Source of the DNA: an uncultured Ruminococcus sp.
Lineage (GTDB): Bacteria; Bacillota; Clostridia; Oscillospirales; Acutalibacteraceae
Reading direction: 5' to 3'
NCBI GenBank assembly: GCA_902802795.1
Contig: CADCNI010000002.1
Coordinates: 10,213-74,212, forward strand
DNA: 64,000 nt
Part shown: positions 3,862 through 63,626 of the stretch, in pieces
How the letters are laid out: each line of letters starts with the position of its first letter
Numbering within the stretch: the stretch's first letter is position 1
The notes under the pieces: model-generated
The model's input: only the letters and a program-made list of their open reading frames with translations
What the model was told of the DNA's origin: nothing
The model's database searches: none
Translations under genes and position numbers: made by a program

Positions 3862-4082
3862 GTGGAAAGGGTATGACTTGACTTTGTGCCTGTGATGGGA
3901 TACAATAGAATGGAAAGAAATACACAATTTTTGTTTTTGATGCATAGCAAGATAGTTTATGGTTTGTTAATATAATTATGCGGTTGTTTGTGTTAAAATA
4001 ACTACTATAGCGATTTTAATAATACGCTTTGCAGGTCAGTCCATTCCATCCGCTCTTACTTATTGATGAAAAGGGGATACAC

Positions 4083-5762
4083 ATGAAAATACGGCGTTCA
4101 TTGGTTGTTTTATTTGTGATATCGACCTTTATTATACCTTTGTCGCTCTACCGATCTTTGTTTTCGAGTGACGCTTCTTCGGAATTTGTCAGCACGCTGG
4201 GTATAATAAACGATGTTTTATTGGGCATCTTTCTGTTGCTTATCTTCGCATTCTCGGTATTTACCGACGAATTTCCCCATTCCTATCCGCCTCACGCGTC
4301 GCGGGGATTGGGGTTGGTTTCCATGCTGCTGTCGGCCGCGTGCGGTTATGCGTCTGTCATGGGGCTGATCAGTGAGGAATATTCGAGTTTCACGGGGATG
4401 TCAGGGAAAATATTTGCCGTGATGGGCATACTATCGGTGCTTTCGTTTATGTTTTATTCCGTTACCTTTTTCAAAGGGGAAAACGCGATTCGCAATGTGC
4501 CCTTTGCCCCGATTTTGCCGGCTCTCTGGTACGGATTTCGCATGCTGCTTAGTTTCCTTCGGTCGGCTTCTATGGCGGATATCAGTGGGGAACTGCCTAT
4601 TATCGCGATGAGCTGTTCCTTTACGATATTCCTGCTCACGTTGGGCAAACTGTTTTGCGGCGTCAATTCCAATTCCATTAAGTGGGGATTTGCGGCCGGC
4701 TGCATCGGCATTATGACGTCCTTCCTTTACACGTCCAACTGGCTTGTGACCCAGTGCGAGTCAGTGGCGGATCTGCTCTCACATCCGATGGTGTTTGCCG
4801 ACTTGTTCATGGGACTGTTTGCCATCGGTTCGCTGTTTCATGTATCGGTTCCCGCAGAGTATTTTGATGACGAGGAATGGGACGATTATTTCTACGAAAC
4901 CCACGATCTGCCCAAGCCCAATCTGATTTTGCATACCCCTGTTGACGAGCTGGAAGAGGACAGTCTGCTGGATGACGATATCAACGAATCCCCTTATATT
5001 CCTGTCAACGCTTCGATTGGCCGTGGAAGCGCAGGCGGAGATGAACCGCATTCCGCTCCGGCCCCCAGGCAGCAACCGCCTCTGCCCCAGCAGGTTCCCT
5101 CTTATATCGCCAATCCTGCGGCCTATTATCCGCCCTATCCTTCACAGGGGAGCAATCCGTATTATCCTCCTGCCGCGCCGACTTATCCCGCCTATCCCGC
5201 TTATCCGGTCTATCCCTATCAGGGCGTTGTGCCGCCTGTGGCAAACGGCGCGGGCGGATATGATTATTACCGCGCGGGCAATCCTTCCATGCCTGTCGAG
5301 TATGTCAGTCCCTATGACGCGGCGGCAGCGCAGTATCAATATGAACGCCGACGTGAGGAATTGCAAAGCCGGGAACTGGAAAAGCTGACAGGCGAGGTGG
5401 ATCATTCCATTGCGCGTCTGCAAAATAATGTGACGCAAAATCGCACGCCTTCCAACGAGTATGTGGCGACCTCTCCCGATGAGAGAATCGGCGGTCGTCA
5501 GAGTATGCAGCCCAGCGGGCGCAATGTGCGGCTGGCGCAAGGATACGCGCAGTCGGGAGAACGCCTCACCGATCACATTGACCGCCTCGGACAGGAGAGC
5601 CGCGCGCGCAATCAGGTCCATTCTTCAGACGAAGAGGACGAATACACCTATGAGTATTATTACCCCAATGACCGTTCGCGGTATGATCTTGCCAATTTCC
5701 ACCCCGGCGGCCGTCAGGGGCAAAACGGTTCCGGTCAGAACCATTCCGGCGGCAGGCGGTAA
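4083..5762 (+). CDS. Polytopic membrane protein with a long Pro/Tyr-rich and charged C-terminal tail (function unknown)
   Basis: ATG 4083 follows AAAGGGGA. There are about 7 hydrophobic helices in the first ~270 aa. A low-complexity stretch (YPPYPSQGSNPYYPPAAPTYPAYPAYPVYPY) and a charged region follow. Confidence 0.6.
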   Translation: MKIRRSLVVLFVISTFIIPLSLYRSLFSSDASSEFVSTLGIINDVLLGIFLLLIFAFSVFTDEFPHSYPPHASRGLGLVSMLLSAACGYASVMGLISEEYSSFTGMSGKIFAVMGILSVLSFMFYSVTFFKGENAIRNVPFAPILPALWYGFRMLLSFLRSASMADISGELPIIAMSCSFTIFLLTLGKLFCGVNSNSIKWGFAAGCIGIMTSFLYTSNWLVTQCESVADLLSHPMVFADLFMGLFAIGSLFHVSVPAEYFDDEEWDDYFYETHDLPKPNLILHTPVDELEEDSLLDDDINESPYIPVNASIGRGSAGGDEPHSAPAPRQQPPLPQQVPSYIANPAAYYPPYPSQGSNPYYPPAAPTYPAYPAYPVYPYQGVVPPVANGAGGYDYYRAGNPSMPVEYVSPYDAAAAQYQYERRREELQSRELEKLTGEVDHSIARLQNNVTQNRTPSNEYVATSPDERIGGRQSMQPSGRNVRLAQGYAQSGERLTDHIDRLGQESRARNQVHSSDEEDEYTYEYYYPNDRSRYDLANFHPGGRQGQNGSGQNHSGGRR

Positions 5763-6926: not shown

Positions 6927-6975
6927 AAACAGCCGTGCCTTTAAGGGGTCCTATCCCCAAGACACGGCTGTTTTG
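6927..6975. terminator. Bidirectional terminator between the hemolysin III-family gene and the LysR gene
   Basis: The stem is aaacagccgtg / cacggctgttt, with an inner ggggtcctatcccc hairpin and T-runs on both strands. Confidence 0.75.
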
Positions 6976-6993
6976 GTATTTGGTATGAAAAAA

Positions 6994-10873: not shown

Positions 10874-10908
10874 CTATTCTCTATTATCTATTCTTTATTC
10901 TCTATTAT
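10874..10908 (-). repeat. Heptanucleotide tandem array x5 (AKAATAR on the minus strand) starting 1 nt after the leuC stop
   Basis: The plus-strand units are ctattct, ctattat, ctattct, ttattct, ctattat. The leuC stop TAA is at 10910-10912. Confidence 0.9.
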
Positions 10909-15354: not shown

Positions 15355-15551
15355 CGGCGCAGACCGATTCCCTCTCTTTTTTTTCATGACTATCCCTCTT
15401 TTTCATATTCATTTAATCCTCTCTTTCGGAAAAAGCTCACTGCGCCAATGCGCTGTGGGCTTTTTCTGTGTGTGTCCCCAACGGTTCCCATTCACAGAGC
15501 GACAGGCGCTTGATTTGTGTGGGAATATCCCAAAATGATACAAAAATCAAC

Positions 15552-15580
15552 TTGCAAACGGTCATAAGGCATGGTATAAT
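15552..15580 (+). promoter_or_regulatory. Promoter TTGCAA-17-(TGg)TATAAT for the TIR gene
   Basis: The boxes lie at 15552-15557 and 15575-15580, with TG at 15572-15573. Confidence 0.65.
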
Positions 15581-15631
15581 GACAAAGAAAAACCCGAAAC
15601 ACGAAAACACGAGAAAACGAGGTGAACCCTT

Positions 15632-16198
15632 GTGGCAACCAATTTTGGATTTATGCCTGTTTTGGAGGGCAAGCGGTATTTTATCAGCTACAAAAGCGAG
15701 GATGCCGAACGGGTAGGCGCTATCACCCGCAGGCTCAACGAAATGGGTGTGCCGATGTGGTACGATTACGGCATCGAAAAGGGCGAATATTGGGAAAAAG
15801 AAATCAACCGAAATATCAAAGCCAGTGAAGCGGTTATTATCTTTGCCACCAAAGCCCTGTTTGCGGCGAATGATACATGGGTGCGCATTGAATTTGATGT
15901 GGCGAAAATGTACGGCAAAAAACGCTATGTGGTGTGGCTGGATGCTCTGGATCCCTATGAACACCCGGAGGACGTTCATGACGACCTGAAAATCTGGTAC
16001 TGGAACGTGGCGCGTCTGCAAGGCATCAAGGTGGCGGGATGTTCGGTTGACCGCATCACGCAGACAATGGTAACGGAATTTCACCTGATACAGGGAATGC
16101 CGCCCCAGCCGCCGTCGCCGACCTTTCAGCCCACCGAGGCAAAAGCCGAACCTATAGCAATCCAAACAAACAAAAAGACAAGTTCGGCGCGCTGGTGA
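15632..16198 (+). CDS. Stand-alone TIR-domain protein
   Basis: KRYFISYKSEDAE... and the conserved W-x-x-x-E motif (TWVRIEF, Glu87) fit a bacterial TIR fold of ~130 aa. A Pro-rich tail follows. GTG 15632 lies 8 nt after GAGGTG. The gene has its own consensus promoter at 15552-15580. Confidence 0.75.
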   Translation: MATNFGFMPVLEGKRYFISYKSEDAERVGAITRRLNEMGVPMWYDYGIEKGEYWEKEINRNIKASEAVIIFATKALFAANDTWVRIEFDVAKMYGKKRYVVWLDALDPYEHPEDVHDDLKIWYWNVARLQGIKVAGCSVDRITQTMVTEFHLIQGMPPQPPSPTFQPTEAKAEPIAIQTNKKTSSARW

Positions 16199-18754: not shown

Positions 18755-21250
18755 ATGAAGGATGTCGAAGGCGTCAACCGGGAGGAATCCGCCATTCCAT
18801 ACGCAAAGGTCGCGGTGGAGAATACCGCCTACAGCTTTGACCGGTTGTTTGATTATGCCGTTCCCGCGGAATATGCCGCTCTCGCCGTGCCGGGCTGCCG
18901 TGTGCTGGTACCCTTCGGACGCGGCAGCCGGACGCGGCAGGGCGTGATTTTCTCCCTGTGCGACAGGGCGGATTACGAAAAGATCAAGCCGATTGCGGCT
19001 GTGACCGACGAATCGCCTGTGCTGTCGGAGGAAATGCTGCGCATGGCGGAGTGGTTCCACGACAATTACTACTGCACTTATTTTGAGGCGGCCAAGGTCA
19101 TGCTGCCCAGCGGCATCAATGTGCGGGTGGTGACTACCTATAAGGCGTCGCCGCAGCTCACTGCGGAGGCCATCGAGGGGCGGGAGGATATCACGCCGCA
19201 GCAGCGGAAGATTTTAGAGATGTTTCTCGACCATCCCGGACTGGTGCTGGAGAAAGCCCACATCACCGAAATGCTCAATCTTCCCGCTGACTCCGCCATT
19301 CCCGACAAGCTGGCGGAAAAAGGATGGCTGGTGCGTCTGGATGACGCGGTGCGCAAAATCAAAAACGCCACTATCAAAATGGCGGTGCTGTCCGACGACT
19401 TTGAGCGGCTGGAGGGCGTGAAGCTGACCCCGAAACAGCGGGAAATCGTGAGCCTTCTCCGGGACGGCGGCGCGGCTTCAGTCAAGGAACTGTGCTACTT
19501 TACGGGATTGTCGCAGGCGGTGGTGGATACCCTCGCCAAAAAGGGCGTGATTCGCTACTATGAGGAAGAAGTCTACCGCAACCCTTACGCCGACGCTGCT
19601 CCCGCGACGGACAGCCGCGTGGTACTGTCGCAGCAGCAGCAGACCGCCTTTGGAAATTTATACCGGCTCTACCGTGAGGACGCGTTTCATGTGTCGCTGC
19701 TGTTCGGCGTGACGGGCAGCGGCAAGACCTCCGTCTTTCTGCGGCTGATCGACGAAGTGCTGGGCGACGGCAAGGGCGTGATCGTCATGGTGCCGGAAAT
19801 CGCCCTGACTTCGCAGACTTTGGCTAAATTTCACAAGCGTTACGGCAGCAAGGTCGCGGTCTTTCACAGCGGACTGTCGCTGGCGCAGCGCATGGACGAA
19901 TGGAAACGCGTGCGGGACGGTCAGGCGCAGATCGCCCTCGGCACCCGTTCGGCGGTCTTTGCCCCTTTTACCGAGCTGGGGCTGGTCATCATCGACGAGG
20001 AGCAGGAATACACCTACAAATCCGAAAATGCCCCCCGTTATCACGCCCGTGACGCGGCGCGATTCCGCTGCGCCTATCACAAGGGGCTGTTGGTGCTGGC
20101 CTCCGCCACGCCCTCCATCGAAACCTATTACCGCGCCGCCGACGCGGGACAGTACGATTATCAGGTGCTTACCAAGCGGTACGGCAGCGCGATTCTGCCC
20201 GATGTGGAAAAGATTGATATTTCGCGCATGGACGTGAGCGAGGGCATACTCAGTCCGCGTCTGTATCAGGCATTGCGGGAGAATCTGGAAAACGGCAGGC
20301 AGTCGATTCTGCTCAACAACCGCAGGGGATTCAATACCTTTGTTTCCTGCCGTGCCTGCAATCAGGTGATTACCTGCCCGAATTGCAGCGTTTCCATGAC
20401 CTATCACCACGACAACCGGCGGCTGATGTGCCACTACTGCGGACATTCCGCCGCCGTTCCCCCAACCTGCCCCTCCTGCGGTCAGCCCCACCTGCGATTT
20501 GCGGGACACGGCACCCAGAAGGCGGAGGAAGAACTGGCGCGGCTTTTCCCGGAAGCCCGTATCCTGCGCATGGACGCGGACGCGATGACGCGGCGCTCGT
20601 CCTATGACAGGAAATTGGGCGACTTCGGCGCGGGGCAGTACGACATCATGATCGGCACCCAGATGGTCGCCAAGGGGCTGAATTTCGAGCGTGTCACGCT
20701 GGTGGGCGTGCTGCTGGCCGACCAGACCCTTTACAGCGACGATTTCCGCAGCTACGAGCGCGCCTTTTCCCTGCTCACGCAGGTGGTGGGACGCGCCGGA
20801 CGCGGCAGCAGCAAAGGACGCGCCATCATTCAGACCATGACGCCTGACAATCCCGTCATCGACATGGCGGCACAGCAGGACTACAAACAATTCTACCAAA
20901 ACGAGATCATTCTCCGCAAGGCGATGCTCTATCCGCCCTTTGCCGATATCTGCATGGTGGGATTTGTGGGCGATAGCGACGACAAAACGGCGGACGCGGC
21001 GGCGGCGTTTTTGGAGCTGCTCAAAACACACACGGGCGAGTCATTTGCCGATCTGCCCGTCAAGGCACTCGGTCCTTCTCCGGCGGCGGTCAAAAAGGTC
21101 AGCGGCAGATACCGTTACAAGCTCATTCTCAAGTGCCGCAACAACGCACGGTTCCGTCAGATGATGCACCTGCTGCTCTGTGAGTTCGGCGGATTGCCCG
21201 CTTATAAGGACATCATCTGTTACGCTGACCTCAACCCTTTATCAGTGTGA
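18755..21250 (+). CDS. priA: Primosomal protein N' (replication restart helicase PriA)
   Basis: It has Walker A (GVTGSGKT), DEEH-like IIDEEQE, and Cys-rich zinc fingers (CRACNQVITCPNC...CHYCG...CPSCG). Confidence 0.95.
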   Translation: MKDVEGVNREESAIPYAKVAVENTAYSFDRLFDYAVPAEYAALAVPGCRVLVPFGRGSRTRQGVIFSLCDRADYEKIKPIAAVTDESPVLSEEMLRMAEWFHDNYYCTYFEAAKVMLPSGINVRVVTTYKASPQLTAEAIEGREDITPQQRKILEMFLDHPGLVLEKAHITEMLNLPADSAIPDKLAEKGWLVRLDDAVRKIKNATIKMAVLSDDFERLEGVKLTPKQREIVSLLRDGGAASVKELCYFTGLSQAVVDTLAKKGVIRYYEEEVYRNPYADAAPATDSRVVLSQQQQTAFGNLYRLYREDAFHVSLLFGVTGSGKTSVFLRLIDEVLGDGKGVIVMVPEIALTSQTLAKFHKRYGSKVAVFHSGLSLAQRMDEWKRVRDGQAQIALGTRSAVFAPFTELGLVIIDEEQEYTYKSENAPRYHARDAARFRCAYHKGLLVLASATPSIETYYRAADAGQYDYQVLTKRYGSAILPDVEKIDISRMDVSEGILSPRLYQALRENLENGRQSILLNNRRGFNTFVSCRACNQVITCPNCSVSMTYHHDNRRLMCHYCGHSAAVPPTCPSCGQPHLRFAGHGTQKAEEELARLFPEARILRMDADAMTRRSSYDRKLGDFGAGQYDIMIGTQMVAKGLNFERVTLVGVLLADQTLYSDDFRSYERAFSLLTQVVGRAGRGSSKGRAIIQTMTPDNPVIDMAAQQDYKQFYQNEIILRKAMLYPPFADICMVGFVGDSDDKTADAAAAFLELLKTHTGESFADLPVKALGPSPAAVKKVSGRYRYKLILKCRNNARFRQMMHLLLCEFGGLPAYKDIICYADLNPLSV

Positions 21251-21266
21251 AATGTGAAGTGTGAAA
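21246..21266 (+). repeat. Heptanucleotide tandem array (TGTGAAR)x3 containing the priA stop codon
   Basis: The units are tgtgaaa, tgtgaag, tgtgaaa. The priA TGA is at 21248-21250. Confidence 0.9.
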
Positions 21267-37606: not shown

Positions 37607-38319
37607 AAACAGCCAAAAGAATCCTGTGGATCACGGCGTTTGTGTCGCTGGTCGGTACGGCGGCGGTGCTGCCGCTGATGCCTGAACGCGTGCCGATGCA
37701 TTACAACGCGGCGTGGGAGATCGACCGATGGGGAAGCAAATATGAAAATCTTCTTTTGCCGCTGATGACGGTCAGCATGGCGCTGTTTTTCGCGGCGCTG
37801 GCTTCCTATTATGAAAGGAAGTCCAAAGAGAATGCGGAGGACAAGGAGAGCGTGCAGGCGGCGTCCAATGCCAAGGTGATGTGGATTGTCGGCGCGGCGG
37901 TGACGGTGTTTTTTACCGCCATGCAGGGCATGATTCTGTATGCGGCTTACCATGGGGCGGCTTCGGACGGGTCGGCGCAGGCGGAGAATATTTCCAGAGT
38001 CACGTTTGTGCTGACAGGCGCTTTGTATATCGTGCTGGGCAATTATATGCCCAAAACCAGAAGGAACAGCACGGTAGGCATGCGGGTGTCGTGGAGCATG
38101 TACAACGACAGCACATGGCGCAAATGCAACCGGTTCGGCGGCATTGTGATGATGCTCACAGGTGTGGCGACGATGGTGACCGCGCTGCTGGCGGATGTGC
38201 TGCCTACGGTATTTCTGATGCTGGGCTATCTTATGGCGGCGACGGCGATCATGCTGGTGTATGCCCGCCGCGTGTATCGGGCGGAAATCCGGAGCGGGGA
38301 AAAAGAGGAAAATCCGTAA
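37603..38319 (+). CDS. SdpI-family membrane protein (DUF1648 + SdpI immunity-like domain)
   Basis: It has PERVPMHYN...WGSK (DUF1648) and N.TVGMRVSWSM...WRKCNRFGG (SdpI) motifs. The ATGA start overlaps the ArsR stop. Confidence 0.8.
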   Translation: MKTAKRILWITAFVSLVGTAAVLPLMPERVPMHYNAAWEIDRWGSKYENLLLPLMTVSMALFFAALASYYERKSKENAEDKESVQAASNAKVMWIVGAAVTVFFTAMQGMILYAAYHGAASDGSAQAENISRVTFVLTGALYIVLGNYMPKTRRNSTVGMRVSWSMYNDSTWRKCNRFGGIVMMLTGVATMVTALLADVLPTVFLMLGYLMAATAIMLVYARRVYRAEIRSGEKEENP

Positions 38320-38325
38320 AAAGTA

Positions 38326-38367
38326 AAAAGGTCTCGGTGCGTGTGGCGATGCACCGGGACCTTTTTT
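38326..38367. terminator. Bidirectional terminator between sdpI-like gene and mreB
   Basis: The stem aaaaggtctcggtgc / gcaccgggacctttt forms more than 11 bp and has A/T flanks. Confidence 0.8.
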
Positions 38368-42372: not shown

Positions 42373-42930
42373 TTGAACGGTGTGATCATTGCCTGCCGTG
42401 ACGCGGGCATGGGGGAAAAGCTGGCGCAGGTTGTCTCTTCGTCCGGTATCAGGGTGCTGGGAACAGTCACCAAGGGCGCGTCGGCGCTGCACTTTGCGTC
42501 CCGTTTCAGCGGAGAAGGCGGCGTGCTGTTGTGCACCTATGCCATGAGCGATATGACCGTTATGGAACTTTTTCAGATCAGACCGGAGCATTTTGAGATA
42601 GTGGTGCTGTTGTCCGCCAGACAGCGGGCGATGGTGCGGGGCGAGGGCATGATCTGTCTGGATATTCCCCTCAACCGCCGTGATCTGATCGAAACGCTGG
42701 CGCTGCTTCTTGAGCGGGGCTGGCACGATAACAAGCCTAAACAAAAGGAGCAAAGACCCGCACCGCGCAGCAAAGCCGACAGCGACCTGATTTTCAGAGC
42801 CAAGGCGCTGCTGATGGAGCGCAACAACATGACCGAACCCGAAGCGCACCGCTTCATGCAAAAGAAAAGCATGGACACGGGGGAGAGTCTGGTGGCGGTG
42901 GCGGAAAAAATATGGAACGGAGTTTTGTGA
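42373..42930 (+). CDS. ANTAR-domain RNA-binding antiterminator with a pseudo-receiver N-domain
   Basis: The C-terminal ANTAR helices are present (IFRAKALLMERNNMTEPEAHRFMQKKSMDTGESLVAVAEKI). The N-domain is receiver-like but appears to lack the phospho-acceptor Asp and the conserved Lys. The start is TTG after GAGAGG. Confidence 0.8.
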   Translation: MNGVIIACRDAGMGEKLAQVVSSSGIRVLGTVTKGASALHFASRFSGEGGVLLCTYAMSDMTVMELFQIRPEHFEIVVLLSARQRAMVRGEGMICLDIPLNRRDLIETLALLLERGWHDNKPKQKEQRPAPRSKADSDLIFRAKALLMERNNMTEPEAHRFMQKKSMDTGESLVAVAEKIWNGVL

Positions 42931-43001
42931 GAATGAGCGTTGTACTTTCGGTTTTGTCAAAATCGCATACGAGTGCCGGAATTGCGACGGTTCTTTTTTC
43001 C

Positions 43002-43023
43002 GTTATTCCAATGAGGGGATAGC
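43002..43023 (+). promoter_or_regulatory. Candidate antiterminator hairpin with AAUGAG hexaloop, competing with the terminator at 43016-43047
   Basis: GUUAUUCC (43002-09), AAUGAG (43010-15) and GGGAUAGC (43016-23) form an 8-bp stem with 2 G.U pairs. The 3' arm is the 5' arm of the downstream terminator. Confidence 0.5.
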
Positions 43024-43047
43024 AGTTCATCTGCTATTCCTTTTTTT
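43016..43047 (+). terminator. Intrinsic terminator 25 nt upstream of the dapF start codon
   Basis: GGGAUAGCAG-UUCAU-CUGCUAUUCC forms 10 bp with one G.U, followed by U7. Confidence 0.8.
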
Positions 43048-43071
43048 ATGCTTACAGGAGGGAGAAACCAT

Positions 43072-43911
43072 ATGAAATTTACCAAGATGCACGGCATCGG
43101 CAACGATTATATTTACGTCAACTGCATGAACGGCATGGATTTTGACCCGTCGGAAACTTCCATCCGACTCAGCGATCGTCATTTCGGCGTGGGTTCCGAC
43201 GGCATGATTCTGATCTGTCCTTCGGAGGTTGCCGATTTCAAGATGCGCATGTTCAACGCGGACGGCTCGGAGGGGAAAATGTGCGGCAACGGTGTGCGCT
43301 GCTTTGCCAAATATGTTTACGCCAAGGGTCTGACCGACAAGACGGAAATCACCGTAGAAACGCTCGGCGGCGTCAAGACCGCGCAGCTCACCGTGGAGGA
43401 CGGGGAAGTGACCTCCGTCCGCGTCAACATGGGCGGCCCGATTCTGGAGCCTGCGCTCATCCCCGTCAAGTGGAACGGCGACAGCCTGATCGGTGAGGCA
43501 GTGTCCGTGGCGGGCGGCGAGTGGAACATCACCTGCGTGTCGATGGGCAATCCTCACTGCGTGGTATTCGTGGACGATGTGGACGGCATGGATTTAGAGA
43601 AAATCGGCCCGAAATTCGAGAACGACCCGCTCTTCCCCGAACGCGTCAACACTGAGTTTGTCAAAAAAATCGACGACAGCACGGTACAAATGCGTGTGTG
43701 GGAACGCGGTTCGGGGGAGACATGGGCGTGCGGCACAGGCGCGTGCGCCGTGGCGGTCGCGTCGATTCTCTGCGGTTATGTGACGAGCAACACGGTGACC
43801 GTCAAGCTGCGCGGCGGCGATCTTCGCATCGAGTGGAACCGTGAGGAAAACACCATCTACATGACCGGCCCCGCGACCTTTGTCTTTGAAGGGGAAGTTT
43901 CTTTAATGTGA
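43072..43911 (+). CDS. dapF: Diaminopimelate epimerase
   Basis: It has MHGIGNDY at the N-terminus and two catalytic Cys contexts (MCGNG and ACGTGA). Confidence 0.93.
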   Translation: MKFTKMHGIGNDYIYVNCMNGMDFDPSETSIRLSDRHFGVGSDGMILICPSEVADFKMRMFNADGSEGKMCGNGVRCFAKYVYAKGLTDKTEITVETLGGVKTAQLTVEDGEVTSVRVNMGGPILEPALIPVKWNGDSLIGEAVSVAGGEWNITCVSMGNPHCVVFVDDVDGMDLEKIGPKFENDPLFPERVNTEFVKKIDDSTVQMRVWERGSGETWACGTGACAVAVASILCGYVTSNTVTVKLRGGDLRIEWNREENTIYMTGPATFVFEGEVSLM

Positions 43912-43941
43912 AGTGTGAAATGTGAAATGTGAAATGTGAAA
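43907..43941 (+). repeat. Heptanucleotide tandem array (TGTGAAR)x5 containing the dapF stop codon
   Basis: The units are tgtgaag followed by four copies of tgtgaaa. The dapF TGA is at 43909-43911. Confidence 0.95.
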
Positions 43942-43964
43942 TTTCAAGCAGGAGGATAATAAAA

Positions 43965-45176
43965 ATGTTTACCATCAACGAAAATTTTGTCAAGCTGCCG
44001 GGAAGCTATCTTTTCTCGGATATCGCCAAGAGAGTGGCGGCTTATACCGCCGCGCACCCCGACCAGTCGATCATCCGTCTGGGCATCGGAGACGTGACCC
44101 GTCCGCTCGCTCCCGCCGTGGTGGAAGCCATGAAGCAGGCCTGCGACGAGATGGGCGAGGCGGCCACTTTCCGCGGCTACGGTCCGGAACAGGGCTATGA
44201 TTTCCTGCGGGAAGCCATCGCGGAAAACGACTACCGCGCCAGGGGCATTGCCATTTCTCCCGACGAGGTGTTTGTGAGCGACGGCGCGAAGTCCGACACC
44301 GGCAACATCGGGGATATCTTCGGCAAGGACAACATTGTGGCGGTGTGCGACCCGGTGTATCCCGTGTATGTCGATACCAATGCCATGGCGGGACGGGCAG
44401 GCGAGCCGCAGTCCGACGGCAGATGGAGCAGCCTTGTCTATATGCCCTGCACGGAGGAAAACGGATTTGCCCCCGCGCTGCCCGACAAAAAGGCGGACAT
44501 GATTTATCTCTGTTTCCCCAACAATCCCACAGGCGCTTCCATCACCTATGAGGGGCTGCAAAAGTGGGTGGATTACGCGCTGTCAAGCGGTTCGGTTATC
44601 CTGTATGACTCGGCGTATGAAGCCTTTATCACAGAGGACATTCCTCACAGCATTTTCGAGATCGAGGGCGCGAAGAAGTGCGCCATCGAATTCCGCAGCT
44701 TCAGCAAGACGGCGGGCTTCACGGGTACCCGCTGCGGCTACACCGTTGTTCCCAAGGAGCTGACCTGCGGCGGCGTTTCGCTGGGCGCGCTCTGGAACCG
44801 CCGTCAGACCACCAAGTTCAACGGCGTGCCTTACATCGTGCAGCGCGGCGCGGAGGCGGTTTATTCCGCGGAGGGACAAAAGCAGATTCGCGAGACAATC
44901 GCTTATTATCTCCATAACGCCAAGGTGATACGAGAGGGACTTGCTCAGGCGGGCTTTACCGTGTACGGCGGCGTGAACGCGCCTTACATCTGGCTGAAAA
45001 CGCCGGACGGCCTGACTTCATGGGAATTCTTTGACGAACTCATCAACCGCGCCGGTGTGGTCGGCACGCCCGGTTCGGGCTTCGGCCCGAGCGGCGAAGG
45101 CTATTTCCGCCTCACCTCGTTTGGTTCGCTGGAAAATTCCGTAGCGGCTATCGAGCGGATCAAGAAAGCGTTTTAA
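43965..45176 (+). CDS. dapL: LL-diaminopimelate aminotransferase
   Basis: The N-terminus ([21 protein letters not shown]) and the PLP Lys context ([10 protein letters not shown]) are typical of DapL. AGGAGG lies 10 nt upstream. Confidence 0.9.
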
Positions 45177-49400: not shown

Positions 49401-49652
49401 CGTGTGGTAAAGCGCCTCGAGGACGGTTCCCCCAACTACATCGACATGATTGTCAACAATGAGCTTGACCTCATCATCAACACCCCCACACAGGGCATGG
49501 AAACCAACCGCGACGGCTATCTCATCAGAAGAAATGCCGTGGAGTGCGGCGTGCATTGCTTCACCTCGCTTGACACGGCGAGAGCGCTGGCCACCTGTCT
49601 CAAGAACGCTGACGGCGTTGATCTCTCGGTCATCGACATCGCGAAAATTTAG
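46455..49652 (+). CDS. carB: Carbamoyl-phosphate synthase large subunit
   Basis: The protein is 1065 aa with duplicated ATP-grasp halves and an MGS-like C-domain. The start overlaps the carA stop. Confidence 0.96.
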   Translation: MPKNPAIKKVVVIGSGPIIIGQAAEFDYAGTQACRSLKEEGVEVVLINSNPATIMTDKDIADKVYIEPLTTDTVKKVILAEKPDSVLPTLGGQNALNLAVELEEEGFFAAHGVTMIGTTAETIRKAEDRQEFKDTMEKIHQPCAESLVVHTVEDAVAFAEKIGYPVVVRPAFTLGGTGGGIAHNHDELVEICGHGLQVSRVTEALIERYIGGWKEIEYEVIRDSAGNCITVCNMENLDPVGVHTGDSIVVAPSQTLSDKEHQMLRSAALAIIDELDIAGGCNVQFALNPNSFEYAVIEVNPRVSRSSALASKATGYPIAKVAAKIALGYRLDEIKNAITHKTFACFEPTLDYCVVKIPRWPFDKFVYAKRKLGTQMKATGEVMGIGINFESALMKSIRCLETNIFSLRMKEVMEMDDETLGQALHLVDDRRIFVIAEALRRGYTQQSIHDITTIDLWFIDKLASIVETEKAIATELSVETLRRAKLLGFTDKVIGEICGRDEDEVRAMRYDNGIRAAYKMVDTCAAEFDAETPYYYSCYESENEVDPTTDKKKVMVIGSGPIRIGQGVEFDYCSVHSVWALRAAGYETIIVNNNPETVSTDFDVSDKLYFEPLTPEDVRNIVELEQPYGAVVQFGGQTAIKLCEALDKMGVRILGTSAENMDRAEDRELFDQILTKCGIPKAPGKTVFTCDEAIAAANEIGYPVLVRPSYVLGGQGMHIAFSDKEIREYIGIINRIQQDHPILVDKYIMGKEVEVDAICDGTDILIPGIMEHIERAGVHSGDSISVYPCQSISKKVQEKIVEDTRNLALSLGVRGMINIQFIVKDDVVYIIEANPRSSRTVPYISKITGIPIVKLATQCLFGDKKIPDLGYEYGLQKEQPTIAIKMPVFSFEKLYGADISLGPEMKSTGEVLGIAYTYEEALIKAFVGTGIRLPRSHKIAITVKDMDKEEVVPIAQDFVDLGYEIYCTAGTSRYLSDRGIPNRVVKRLEDGSPNYIDMIVNNELDLIINTPTQGMETNRDGYLIRRNAVECGVHCFTSLDTARALATCLKNADGVDLSVIDIAKI

Positions 49653-49671
49653 TGGTCAGTGGTTAGTGGTT
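49651..49671 (+). repeat. Heptanucleotide tandem array (AGTGGTY)x3 overlapping the carB stop codon
   Basis: The units are agtggtc, agtggtt, agtggtt. The carB TAG is at 49650-49652. Confidence 0.85.
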
Positions 49672-49764
49672 AGCGCTGTCCAAAATGCAAGTACTCCCTT
49701 CGGTACGTCTGTGACGTGACGGAGGGAGTTTGTTTTGCCAAGTGGAGAACCAGTTGATACAACG

Positions 49765-49870: not shown

Positions 49871-49884
49871 CTTCACATTTCACT
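49871..49884 (-). repeat. Two GTGAA-type heptamer units, sense to the minus-strand EEP gene
   Basis: The plus strand reads cttcaca tttcact, which on the minus strand is agtgaaa tgtgaag. This lies ~60 nt downstream of the EEP stop. Confidence 0.6.
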
Positions 49885-62856: not shown

Positions 62857-63462
62857 ATGACTATCACCTGTTTGGACTTGGAGGGCGTACTGGTGCCCGA
62901 AATCTGGATTGCGTTTGCCGAGGCGACCGGCATTCCCGAACTGAAAAAGACCACCCGCGACGAGCCGGATTATGACAAGCTTATGCAATACCGCATTGCC
63001 ATTTTGAAAGAGCACGGTCTGGGACTCAAAGAGATTCAGGACGTGATCGCGACCATCGACCCCATGCCGGGCGCTAAGGAATTCCTTGACGAACTGCGCG
63101 CGATGGGACAGGTCATCATCCTCAGCGATACCTTTACCGAATTTGCCGCTCCGCTTATGAAGAAACTGGGCTGGCCGACCATCTTCTGCAATTCGCTGGT
63201 CGTTTCGGAAAGCGGTGAGGTTACGGGCTTCAAGATGCGCGTGGAAAATTCCAAATTCACCACCGTCAAGGCGCTCCAGTCCATCGGCTACGATACCATC
63301 GCCAGCGGCGACAGCTACAACGATCTCGGCATGATCAAGGCGAGCAAGGCGGGTTTCCTTTTCAAGAGCACCGATAAAATCAAGGCCGACAATCCCGATA
63401 TTCCTGCTTTCGACACCTACGAGGAACTTCTTGACGCTATCCGGAAAGCCATCTCCGAATAA
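62857..63462 (+). CDS. thrH: Phosphoserine phosphatase / homoserine phosphotransferase (ThrH-type HAD)
   Basis: CLDLEGVLVPEIWIAFAE...TRDEPDYDKLM matches the ThrH N-terminus closely (comparison from memory). Confidence 0.85.
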   Translation: MTITCLDLEGVLVPEIWIAFAEATGIPELKKTTRDEPDYDKLMQYRIAILKEHGLGLKEIQDVIATIDPMPGAKEFLDELRAMGQVIILSDTFTEFAAPLMKKLGWPTIFCNSLVVSESGEVTGFKMRVENSKFTTVKALQSIGYDTIASGDSYNDLGMIKASKAGFLFKSTDKIKADNPDIPAFDTYEELLDAIRKAISE

Positions 63463-63464
63463 GA

Positions 63465-63492
63465 AAGTGGAAAGTGAGAAGTGGAGAGTGAA
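63465..63492 (+). repeat. Heptanucleotide tandem array (RAGTGRR)x4 starting 2 nt after the thrH stop
   Basis: The units are aagtgga, aagtgag, aagtgga, gagtgaa. The thrH TAA is at 63460-63462. Confidence 0.85.
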
Positions 63493-63533
63493 ACAGTTCC
63501 ATTCTTTCTATTTTTTTCAAGCGCGAATGCGCT

Positions 63534-63578
63534 TCCTTCATTTCACACTTCACACTTCACACTTCACATTTCACACTT
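63534..63578 (-). repeat. Heptanucleotide tandem array (TGTGAAR)x5-6 on the minus strand
   Basis: The plus-strand units are tttcaca, three copies of cttcaca, then tttcaca. The array is sense to the minus-strand gene 63642..63983, just past its terminator. Confidence 0.9.
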
Positions 63579-63581
63579 AAT

Positions 63582-63626
63582 AAAAAATGCCCGGCTTCGT
63601 TCGCAAACCAAGGAACGGAGCCGGGC
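63582..63626 (-). terminator. Intrinsic terminator after gene 63642..63983
   Basis: On the minus strand, gcccggct...agccgggc is followed by atttttta. Confidence 0.7.

Follow-up and report, generated by a model that had tools for sequence, protein, structure and literature searches.

Why should the short gap between two genes of the lysine pathway be filled with tandem copies of a seven-nucleotide unit, and why should the stop codon of the first gene be built into that tract? The locus in question lies in a 64-kb stretch of an uncultured Ruminococcus sp. (contig CADCNI010000002.1; hereafter the window), where positions 43907–43941 of the plus strand read TGTGAAG followed by four copies of TGTGAAA, that is (TGTGAAR)x5, between dapF (diaminopimelate epimerase) and dapL. 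We find that the array is a heptanucleotide microsatellite of the long simple sequence repeat (SSR) or short tandemly repeated repetitive sequence (STRR) kind, situated in the dapF–dapL intercistronic spacer, and that TGTGAAR is a new unit family of this known kind. As to its origin and role, we favour the view, which we hold to be probable rather than assured, that slippage generated the tract as a C-free spacer, that constraints at the transcript level then acted on it as a filter, and that it would at most modulate dapF–dapL coupling.

Tandem Repeats Finder (TRF) recovered the array with a period of 7, 5.4 copies and 93% matches, and the two-unit 14-mer TGTGAARTGTGAAR occurs 11 times in the window with at most one mismatch, against 0.07 occurrences expected. 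The array begins 2 nt ahead of the dapF stop codon (TGA, 43909–43911), which lies within unit 1, and TGA returns every 7 nt, so that a stop stands in each of the three frames, the in-frame one only once per 21 nt. The units, their place at the dapF stop and the stops in three frames are as an earlier, preliminary description of the locus had stated; only the distance to the dapL ribosome-binding site (RBS), given there as 7 nt, needs correction to 8 nt. The array is followed by TTTCAAGC, by the RBS AGGAGG (43950–43955, plus strand), which is kept in orthologous spacers, and by the dapL ATG at 43965. The C-free, purine-rich strand of the array is the transcript strand. The open reading frame (ORF) of dapF spans 43048–43911, and because its homologues, which carry PF01678, are 276–283 aa long, the true start is probably 43072 rather than 43048, giving a coding sequence (CDS) of 43072–43911 (plus strand). 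Downstream, the dapL-type CDS (43965–45176, plus strand) encodes a class I/II aminotransferase of 403 aa (Pfam PF00155; 403–404 aa in relatives). The nearest named DapF homologues, with 64–68% identity, come from metagenome-assembled genomes (MAGs) of Clostridia / Lachnospiraceae. The dapF–dapL junction with heptamer units was found in at least six independent metagenome assemblies, which rules out an assembly artefact, a concern raised in the preliminary description, as the source of the array.

Upstream of these genes, an ANTAR-domain (RNA-binding antiterminator) gene lies directly 5' of dapF (42373–43071), and a 13-bp hairpin with a T-run occupies 43013–43043, ~25 nt ahead of the probable dapF start. 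The gene order PP2C–ANTAR–dapF–dapL–carA–carB is common to all relatives fetched; this conservation, together with the ANTAR gene and the hairpin, suggests that the dapF–dapL operon may be under ANTAR-controlled attenuation.

We compared the junction across contigs found via DapF homologues, with identities referring to the DapF protein. The window carries 5 units. At ~97% identity, contig L128 carries 3 units in a short spacer as in the window, and its flanks agree with those of the window where compared (~35 nt before the stop and the entire spacer to the dapL ATG); three other contigs at ~97% (L122, L124 and L125) have 4 units and a fourth (L123) has 3, all four with ~95 nt of additional spacer. 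The slippage-prone character and the differences in unit number between strains that the preliminary description had envisaged are thus borne out, with 3, 4 or 5 units at ~97% identity. More distant relatives show the tract at later stages or not at all: 4 degenerate units at 89% identity (L129; CGTGAAG, TGTAAAA, TGTGAAG, TGTGAAA), a decayed tract at 80% (L126; CTGAAAA, CTGAAGG, CTTAATA, ATGAAGA), and no array in L121, at 95%, where a TAA located nine nt earlier ends dapF. Relative to L121, the array-bearing strains have an indel of a few nucleotides that puts this TAA out of frame, and their dapF ends at the first TGA of the array. The relatives at 79% identity (L130–L133, with identical DapF in all four) are without heptamers and show tandem duplication across the dapF stop: L131 (10832–10869) and L132 (7837–7874) have two copies of the 19-nt unit AAGGAGAAACATGAATCTA and L133 (3565–3583) has one, while in L130 (10832–11005) a larger part of the dapF 3' end is duplicated and a scaffold gap is present. 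The resulting dapF–dapL spacers measure 19, 38 or 174 nt.

The ~95-nt indel among the ~97% strains lies between the array and the dapL RBS (L122:3841–3984 compared with window 43912–43964). Pyrimidines predominate in the additional segment of L122, which also holds decayed units of antisense type (CTTCCCTCTTCATACTTTAT).

The dapF array is not alone in the window. Arrays were gathered there from the sequence after every probable stop codon and with TRF, and gene identities were taken from Pfam. Period-7 arrays abut or overlap sense-strand stops at seven genes, namely priA, dapF, carB and the genes of a HAD hydrolase, an aconitase-family protein, an SdpI-family protein and a LysR protein; seven of the nine period-7 TRF arrays adjoin a sense-strand stop, with gaps of −7 to +10 nt. 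When arrays were placed at random within the 5.4 kb of intergenic DNA (20,000 trials), a mean of 0.48 and a maximum of 4 adjoined a stop; strand was assigned post hoc in this test, which at most doubles the expectation and leaves the conclusion unaffected. Altogether, the 64 kb hold five TGTGAAR-like loci plus arrays of TTAGTGG and AATAGAG, none of them inside CDS bodies.

The priA array, correctly placed in the preliminary description, occupies 21246–21266 (plus strand; TGTGAAA, TGTGAAG, TGTGAAA), with the stop TGA at 21248–21250 in unit 1 and def 82 nt downstream; this three-unit mixed array is invariant across 10 independent contigs. At carB, units of TTAGTGG, TCAGTGG, TTAGTGG and a partial TTAG (49649–49673, plus strand) include the stop TAG (49650–49652) in unit 1 and are followed by a strong terminator hairpin; the same sequence is found in L121 and is absent in L126 and L130–L133. 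Four GAAAGTG-type units (63463–63490, plus strand; degenerate NGTGRAR) begin right at the end of the TAA of the HAD-hydrolase gene, and an AATAGAG-type array of 4.7 units (10874–10906, minus strand) lies 3 nt past the TAA of the aconitase-family large-subunit gene, in an intercistronic position. Two weak arrays of 2.1 copies each complete the stop-adjacent set: GTAAAAA (38316–38330, plus strand) spans the TAA of the SdpI-family gene, with a hairpin next to it, and ATACCAA (6972–6986, minus strand) lies 7 nt past the LysR gene stop. Two further loci had been described as trailing minus-strand genes. The one at 49871–49884 does lie on the minus strand and has only two units (AGTGAAA and TGTGAAG, with one mismatch), 60 nt past the stop of an EEP-family gene. 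For the other, reported at 63534, five minus-strand TGTGAAR units exist at 63541–63575, in a convergent spacer; its gene assignment is ambiguous, because it lies 4–5 nt beyond a hairpin and T-run trailing the minus-strand gene and about equidistant from both convergent stops (66 nt from that of the minus-strand gene and 78 nt from that of the plus-strand gene).

Two other features touch these loci. In the priA–def spacer, L137 (2764–3000) and L143 (1658–1883) carry an insertion of ~140–155 bp whose terminal inverted repeats are long (CACTATCCACAACTTAAG ... CTTAAGTTGTGGTTAGTG) and whose target ATATTGAAAG is duplicated; it looks like a miniature inverted-repeat transposable element and is missing from the window and eight other contigs. 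Elsewhere in the window (15525–15632), a promoter-like TTGCAA-17-TATAAT precedes a leader that is rich in A and nearly periodic, GAAACAC GAAAACAC GAGAAAAC GAGGTGA, and that leads into the RBS of the ORF at 15632–16198; this is the sole period-7 tract of the window in a 5' leader and not behind a stop.

Pure long arrays vary, interrupted short ones stay stable and old ones decay, which is the behaviour of microsatellites; the same variability is seen in Flavobacterium, where two species (L022 and L070) whose upstream proteins are 98.7% identical have 3 and 14 units. Judged from its sequence, the dapF tract is a slippage-prone heptanucleotide microsatellite that differs in 7-bp steps between close strains. 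It shows all three features that define bacterial heptanucleotide long SSRs and STRR-like repeats (at least three tandem 7-nt units, multiple non-coding loci and variation in unit number). The preliminary description was right that it is no hairpin terminator, CRISPR array or repetitive extragenic palindromic (REP) sequence, but to place it outside every classical known element would go too far. Folding predicts the dapF spacer to be unstructured (z +0.94 relative to shuffles, with an open chain as centroid) and no terminator-like site was found in 43900–43965, which excludes an intrinsic (Rho-independent) terminator. REP sequences and bacterial interspersed mosaic elements are excluded by the presence of direct repeats only, without self-complementarity, CRISPR by 7-nt units without spacers, and the G-quadruplex heptamer (GGGNATC) class by a unit with no run of two or more G. 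The array is not a phase-variable contingency locus, given its position between stop and RBS and its housekeeping neighbours: it shares with phase-variation SSRs a unit-number polymorphism by slippage, whereas those repeats act as ON/OFF switches of surface or restriction genes from within the 5' coding region or the promoter spacer, and the dapF array trails a housekeeping gene where no frame shift is possible. We judge the likeness of the unit to the CRP half-site (TGTGA) and a weak GUGA complementarity to the 16S 3' end to be coincidental.

How general is the position behind a stop? One genome per species was scanned for (TGTGAAR)x3, which gave at least 120 matches; the matches listed, to which all cross-phylum counts in this text refer, contain 129 arrays, and the window's own genome is not among them. 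They span Bacteroidota, Clostridia (including rumen MAGs), Cyanobacteria (with TGTGAAG arrays in contigs of Nostoc, Calothrix, Rivularia and Chroococcidiopsis), Planctomycetota, Acidobacteriota, Latescibacterota, Chlorobiota, Gammaproteobacteria and others. The association with gene ends and with the sense strand, proposed in the preliminary description and seen at seven of nine arrays in the window, extends to this set: 64 of the 129 arrays lie within 30 nt past the point where an ORF of 150 aa or more stops on the same strand, and only 4 occupy the equivalent antisense position (two-sided binomial p ~6e-15). Because a TGA within the unit could itself create ORF ends, the count was redone with only those stops that lie upstream of the array (gap 0–15 nt), giving 30 sense and 3 antisense cases (p ~1e-6), of which at least one antisense case is a spurious shadow ORF at the window's own array. 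Arrays mostly begin ~10 nt or less past the stop, for only 11 of 129 does a start follow within 30 nt, and most arrays of the TGTGAAR family trail terminal genes. The 64 upstream ORFs are real and varied genes (113 Pfam families), and by Pfam they share no functional theme.

The preference for seven is equally visible in the 951 kb of sequence collected, where tandem repeats of period 7 number 291 (~129 of them brought in by the (TGTGAAR)x3 search itself), against 15 of period 6 and 22 of period 8. Viral contigs yielded only 16 stretches with the three-unit pattern, in mixed contexts. Where the heptamer next to a stop is of another type than TGTGAAR, the sense strand is purine-rich in 11 of 12 units, and G exceeds C in 8 compared with 1. 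C accounts for 16% of the 692 substitutions in 400 imperfect in-register flanking units and is avoided; in these units positions 1–2 are the most variable (conservation 0.62 and 0.67), with A5 at 0.86 and R7 at 0.89.

Single loci of this collection also deserve mention. In the rumen Clostridiales MAG RUG198 (L067:3200–3640, minus strand), TGTGAAR arrays of 42 and 6 units are each preceded by CTACGACTGAATTAA, which suggests a duplicated segment holding very long arrays. The genes upstream of TGTGAAA arrays in L001, L049 and L104 (Bacteroidetes, Chlorobiota and Calditrichia MAGs) are mutual homologues with 33–44% identity; the L001 gene and one other of the set carry a type IX secretion system C-terminal sorting domain (Pfam), and the array begins within 10 nt of the TAA in all three.

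What, then, sets the orientation of the arrays? Replication strand is ruled out: GC skew is positive throughout the window, yet its minus-strand genes carry minus-sense arrays, and across phyla 24 of 63 sense arrays lie at loci with negative skew on the sense strand. Translation is not needed either, as loci beside tRNA genes show: a tRNA-Leu gene of L078 is trailed after 12 nt by (GTGTGAA)3 together with an inverted copy, and the spacers of a Rhodopirellula tRNA operon (L090) hold sense arrays of TGTGAAA (x5), GGGTGAA (x7), AGTGAAG (x7) and AAGCTAA (x4); this tRNA sample is small, with 5 sense arrays and 1 distant antisense array. Array orientation follows transcription, not replication, and since sense arrays fill these untranslated spacers, it does not need translation. 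An anti-Rho effect of the C-free (anti-rut) sequence was not retained as a general explanation: the sense bias is also seen at loci of cyanobacteria, which are not known to have Rho. The L090 cluster (3990–5400, minus strand; tRNA-Phe/Val/Ala/Arg of a Rhodopirellula MAG) additionally shows inverted units behind the sense heptamer arrays in nearly every spacer, and several TTAGC-type arrays of period 7 or 8.

Such inverted partners are a feature of part of the family. Strong complementarity, set at a duplex of −20 kcal/mol or lower, links 27 of 120 arrays to a partner within 120 nt downstream and 2 of 120 to one upstream. In the convergent spacer 63455–63600 of the window, the GAAAGUG array (63463–63490) is predicted to pair with the UUCACAC array (63541–63575), with z −2.9 on the plus and −2.1 on the minus strand. 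The predicted long stem, on transcripts of either strand, encloses a small GC hairpin; ~22% of TGTGAAR arrays elsewhere carry such an inverted downstream partner. The dapF array is solo. A rough search for terminators behind 61 sense arrays gave only 3 hits and is uninformative, because canonical terminators are missing in many of these phyla.

Knowledge of bacterial tandem repeats with a 7-nt unit goes back to the cyanobacterial STRRs, whose classical units Mazel and co-workers reportedly described in 1990 as CCCCAGT, TTGGTCA and CAACAGT. In the strict cyanobacterial sense the array is not an STRR: the host is an uncultured, Clostridia-like gut or rumen bacterium rather than a heterocystous cyanobacterium, and TGTGAAR is unlike the canonical units. 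The dapF array is also predicted to form no hairpin. What it has in common with STRRs is a tandem 7-bp unit that recurs at numerous non-coding loci of one genome, among them the spacers of co-transcribed genes. Cyanobacterial STRRs occur between co-transcribed genes such as hupS and hupL, and a role in transcript stability or translational coupling has been proposed, their function being unknown (PMC2670836). Heptanucleotides are the most abundant long SSRs in most prokaryotic genomes, with polymerase slippage suggested as their origin (Mrazek et al. 2007, as summarised in PMC4679880), and the arrays described here agree with that account in that heptamers are commonest, slippage is the likely source and units that are no multiple of three are kept out of coding regions; the stop adjacency and transcript-strand rule quantified here for TGTGAAR is not part of this summary of the 2007 work. 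In Xanthomonas and Nostoc, the G-rich heptamers GGGAATC and GGGGA(C/T)T lie on the coding strand within 50 bp past stops, vary in length among close relatives, and have neither a neighbour-gene theme nor a known function (Rehm et al. 2015, PMC4692102). They share with TGTGAAR the over-representation in non-coding DNA, the variable length and the lack of a neighbour-gene theme, and differ in having G-runs, G-quadruplexes and a preference for four units, whereas TGTGAAR has no G-run and is predicted to be unstructured. TAACTGA repeats, found in Beggiatoaceae, cyanobacteria and Bacteroidetes, are oriented and mostly lie one to a few nt upstream of starts, and a post-transcriptional role via S1, Csp or CsrA has been proposed, not demonstrated (MacGregor 2015, PMC4679880). 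Like TGTGAAR, TAACTGA (in sets of 2–6) is a C-poor, stop-containing, intergenic and strongly oriented heptamer scattered over phyla; unlike it, TAACTGA mostly sits before start codons. Our literature search found no paper with the string TGTGAAATGTGAAA, and on the TGTGAAR unit or heptamer-repeat function it returned nothing past PMC4679880, PMC4692102 and PMC2670836.

Our favoured account of the dapF tract, a slippage-generated spacer filtered at the transcript level, would run as follows. New units would be born through tandem duplication at or right behind a stop codon, the stop region being the first site where a 7-nt insertion spares both the reading frame and downstream signals; the 19-nt duplication across the dapF stop in the 79% relatives shows the duplication process proposed here for unit birth. 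Transcript-level selection, or a transcription-linked mutational bias, would then decide in which strand and place a tract survives, candidate filters being the avoidance of C-rich or structured RNA, or of transcripts complementary to many other copies. On the mRNA, the array would serve as a passive single-stranded spacer that sets the distance between the dapF stop and the dapL RBS and keeps it open; unit number might modulate dapF–dapL coupling and would not be essential.

Several observations weigh against this account. Independent local birth predicts random units, yet TGTGAAR-like units make up five arrays of the window and recur across many phyla; behind this may lie a benefit of the sequence itself or a mutational preference for it, neither of which the account includes. 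It also leaves the period of 7 unexplained. The array at the dapF stop persists from 97% to 89% identity, and in decayed form to 80%, which is longer than a neutral tract might, and the array at 63541–63575 lies beyond an apparent terminator, so that not each copy is clearly transcribed.

Because the recurrence of the TGAAR core across phyla goes unexplained, a sequence-specific binding factor stays the main rival, unlikely as we consider it. The array would then be a periodic platform on which several copies of a putative single-stranded-RNA-binding protein sit in 7-nt register and control stability, processing or translation; cold-shock-domain proteins, which contact ~7 nt, or a HutP/TRAP-like oligomer would be examples. 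The strict period, the recurrence of one unit type at several window loci and in many phyla, the strong bias to the transcript strand, the C-free RNA predicted to be unstructured and the higher conservation of A5 and R7 relative to positions 1–2 would all suit such a platform. For HutP, sites consist of NAG-N4 with three per site, and HutP/TRAP-type sites generally of (N/U)AG triplets at fixed spacing. In the dapF array AAG occurs only in unit 1, with none in the four TGTGAAA units, so that the NAG of a HutP site is missing there, and no terminator adjoins. Comparable proposals exist for TAACTGA repeats (PMC4679880). A platform fits poorly with the polymorphic copy number, with a 95% relative that lacks the array without visible consequence, and with the unrelated units TTAGTGG and AATAGAG that hold the equivalent position in the same genome.

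A purely mutational origin without any RNA-level role, which we regard as rather improbable, would make the arrays junk: transcription-associated instability would favour purine-sense 7-nt expansions past stops, hypothetically through R-loops formed by purine-rich untranslated RNA right behind the last ribosome. The quick turnover and decayed arrays, an orientation that tracks transcription rather than translation, the upstream genes without functional theme and the tandem duplications of other lengths at the dapF–dapL junction all agree with it. It does not account for the convergence of cyanobacteria, Bacteroidota, Clostridia and others on TGTGAAR or for the avoidance of C among substitutions, and it requires a sharp boundary, the arrays lying within ~10 nt of the sense-gene stop. 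A bolder proposal, for which we see only a slim chance, is that TGTGAAR arrays, with their core TGAAR, are a pan-bacterial transcript-strand cis element right behind the last translated or processed RNA unit, and that either a widely conserved factor binding single-stranded RNA or the transcription or translation machinery reads them in a register of 7 nt; if true, it would give the heptanucleotide excess represented by STRR, TAACTGA and GGGNATC repeats one common molecular function.

The preliminary description had also considered a three-frame stop cassette, selected to end read-through or frameshifted ribosomes just past dapF. TGA does occur in every frame, and since dapF runs past the position of the L121 TAA to the first TGA of the array, the frame is caught. 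As a selected property, however, this did not hold up. Of the other sense units abutting stops, 9 of 11 contain a stop triplet, against 6.9 expected by letter permutation (p = 0.13), as do 67 of 113 other arrays, against 64.1 expected by letter shuffles. With an in-frame stop just once per 21 nt, five units are no better than one or two; equally oriented arrays occur in tRNA operons, and published stop-free G-rich heptamers share the placement (PMC4692102). Because stop triplets match the expectation from an A/G/T-only composition, we read the three-frame stops as a probable by-product of the unit's composition and consider a selected cassette very unlikely.

We give equally little credence to a contingency rheostat, in which the 7-nt steps in unit number would themselves be the function and, as in phase-variable SSRs, would let a population adjust dapL translation or coupling stochastically. 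Three length alleles in near-identical strains and the position of the array 8 nt upstream of the dapL RBS are what such a device would need, but the neighbours are housekeeping and not surface or restriction genes, the array lies outside both ORF and promoter spacing so that no ON/OFF switch is possible, and the arrays of the family mostly trail terminal genes. Least probable of all is a hairpin arm, in which the purine-rich array would pair with a downstream inverted pyrimidine-rich array to form a terminator, processing site or stabiliser: the excess of downstream over upstream partners, the predicted pairing at 63463–63490 and 63541–63575, the examples beside tRNA genes in L078 and L090 and the reported cyanobacterial STRR hairpins (PMC2670836) speak for it elsewhere, but the dapF array is partnerless, its spacer folds no better than shuffles and three quarters of the arrays are solo.

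Two further observations concern the window at large. An 18/36-nt tandem repeat of ~10.5 copies of 36 nt (GACGGAGCCGAGTGCCGCGACGGAGCCGAGCAACGC) lies at 2233–2610 within the ORF 1055–2791, and the corresponding segment of the product is probably repetitive and disordered. A search of the whole 64 kb against Rfam 15 at the gathering threshold gave zero matches (no tRNA, riboswitch or T-box), an unusual result where a Firmicute-like region carries operons for the biosynthesis of amino acids.

For the heptanucleotide repeats as a family, the rule is sharpened here: transcripts carry the C-free, purine-rich strand, arrays begin ~10 nt or less from the end of the upstream gene, and their orientation is that of transcription rather than of replication or translation. 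This narrows the explanations, a selected stop cassette not being supported. The arrays also have practical effects, as they bear on gene calling (C-terminal extensions that end in an array), break short-read assemblies and may serve as strain markers. With its natural alleles of 3, 4 and 5 units between two essential lysine-pathway genes, the dapF–dapL junction offers a simple and testable model locus.

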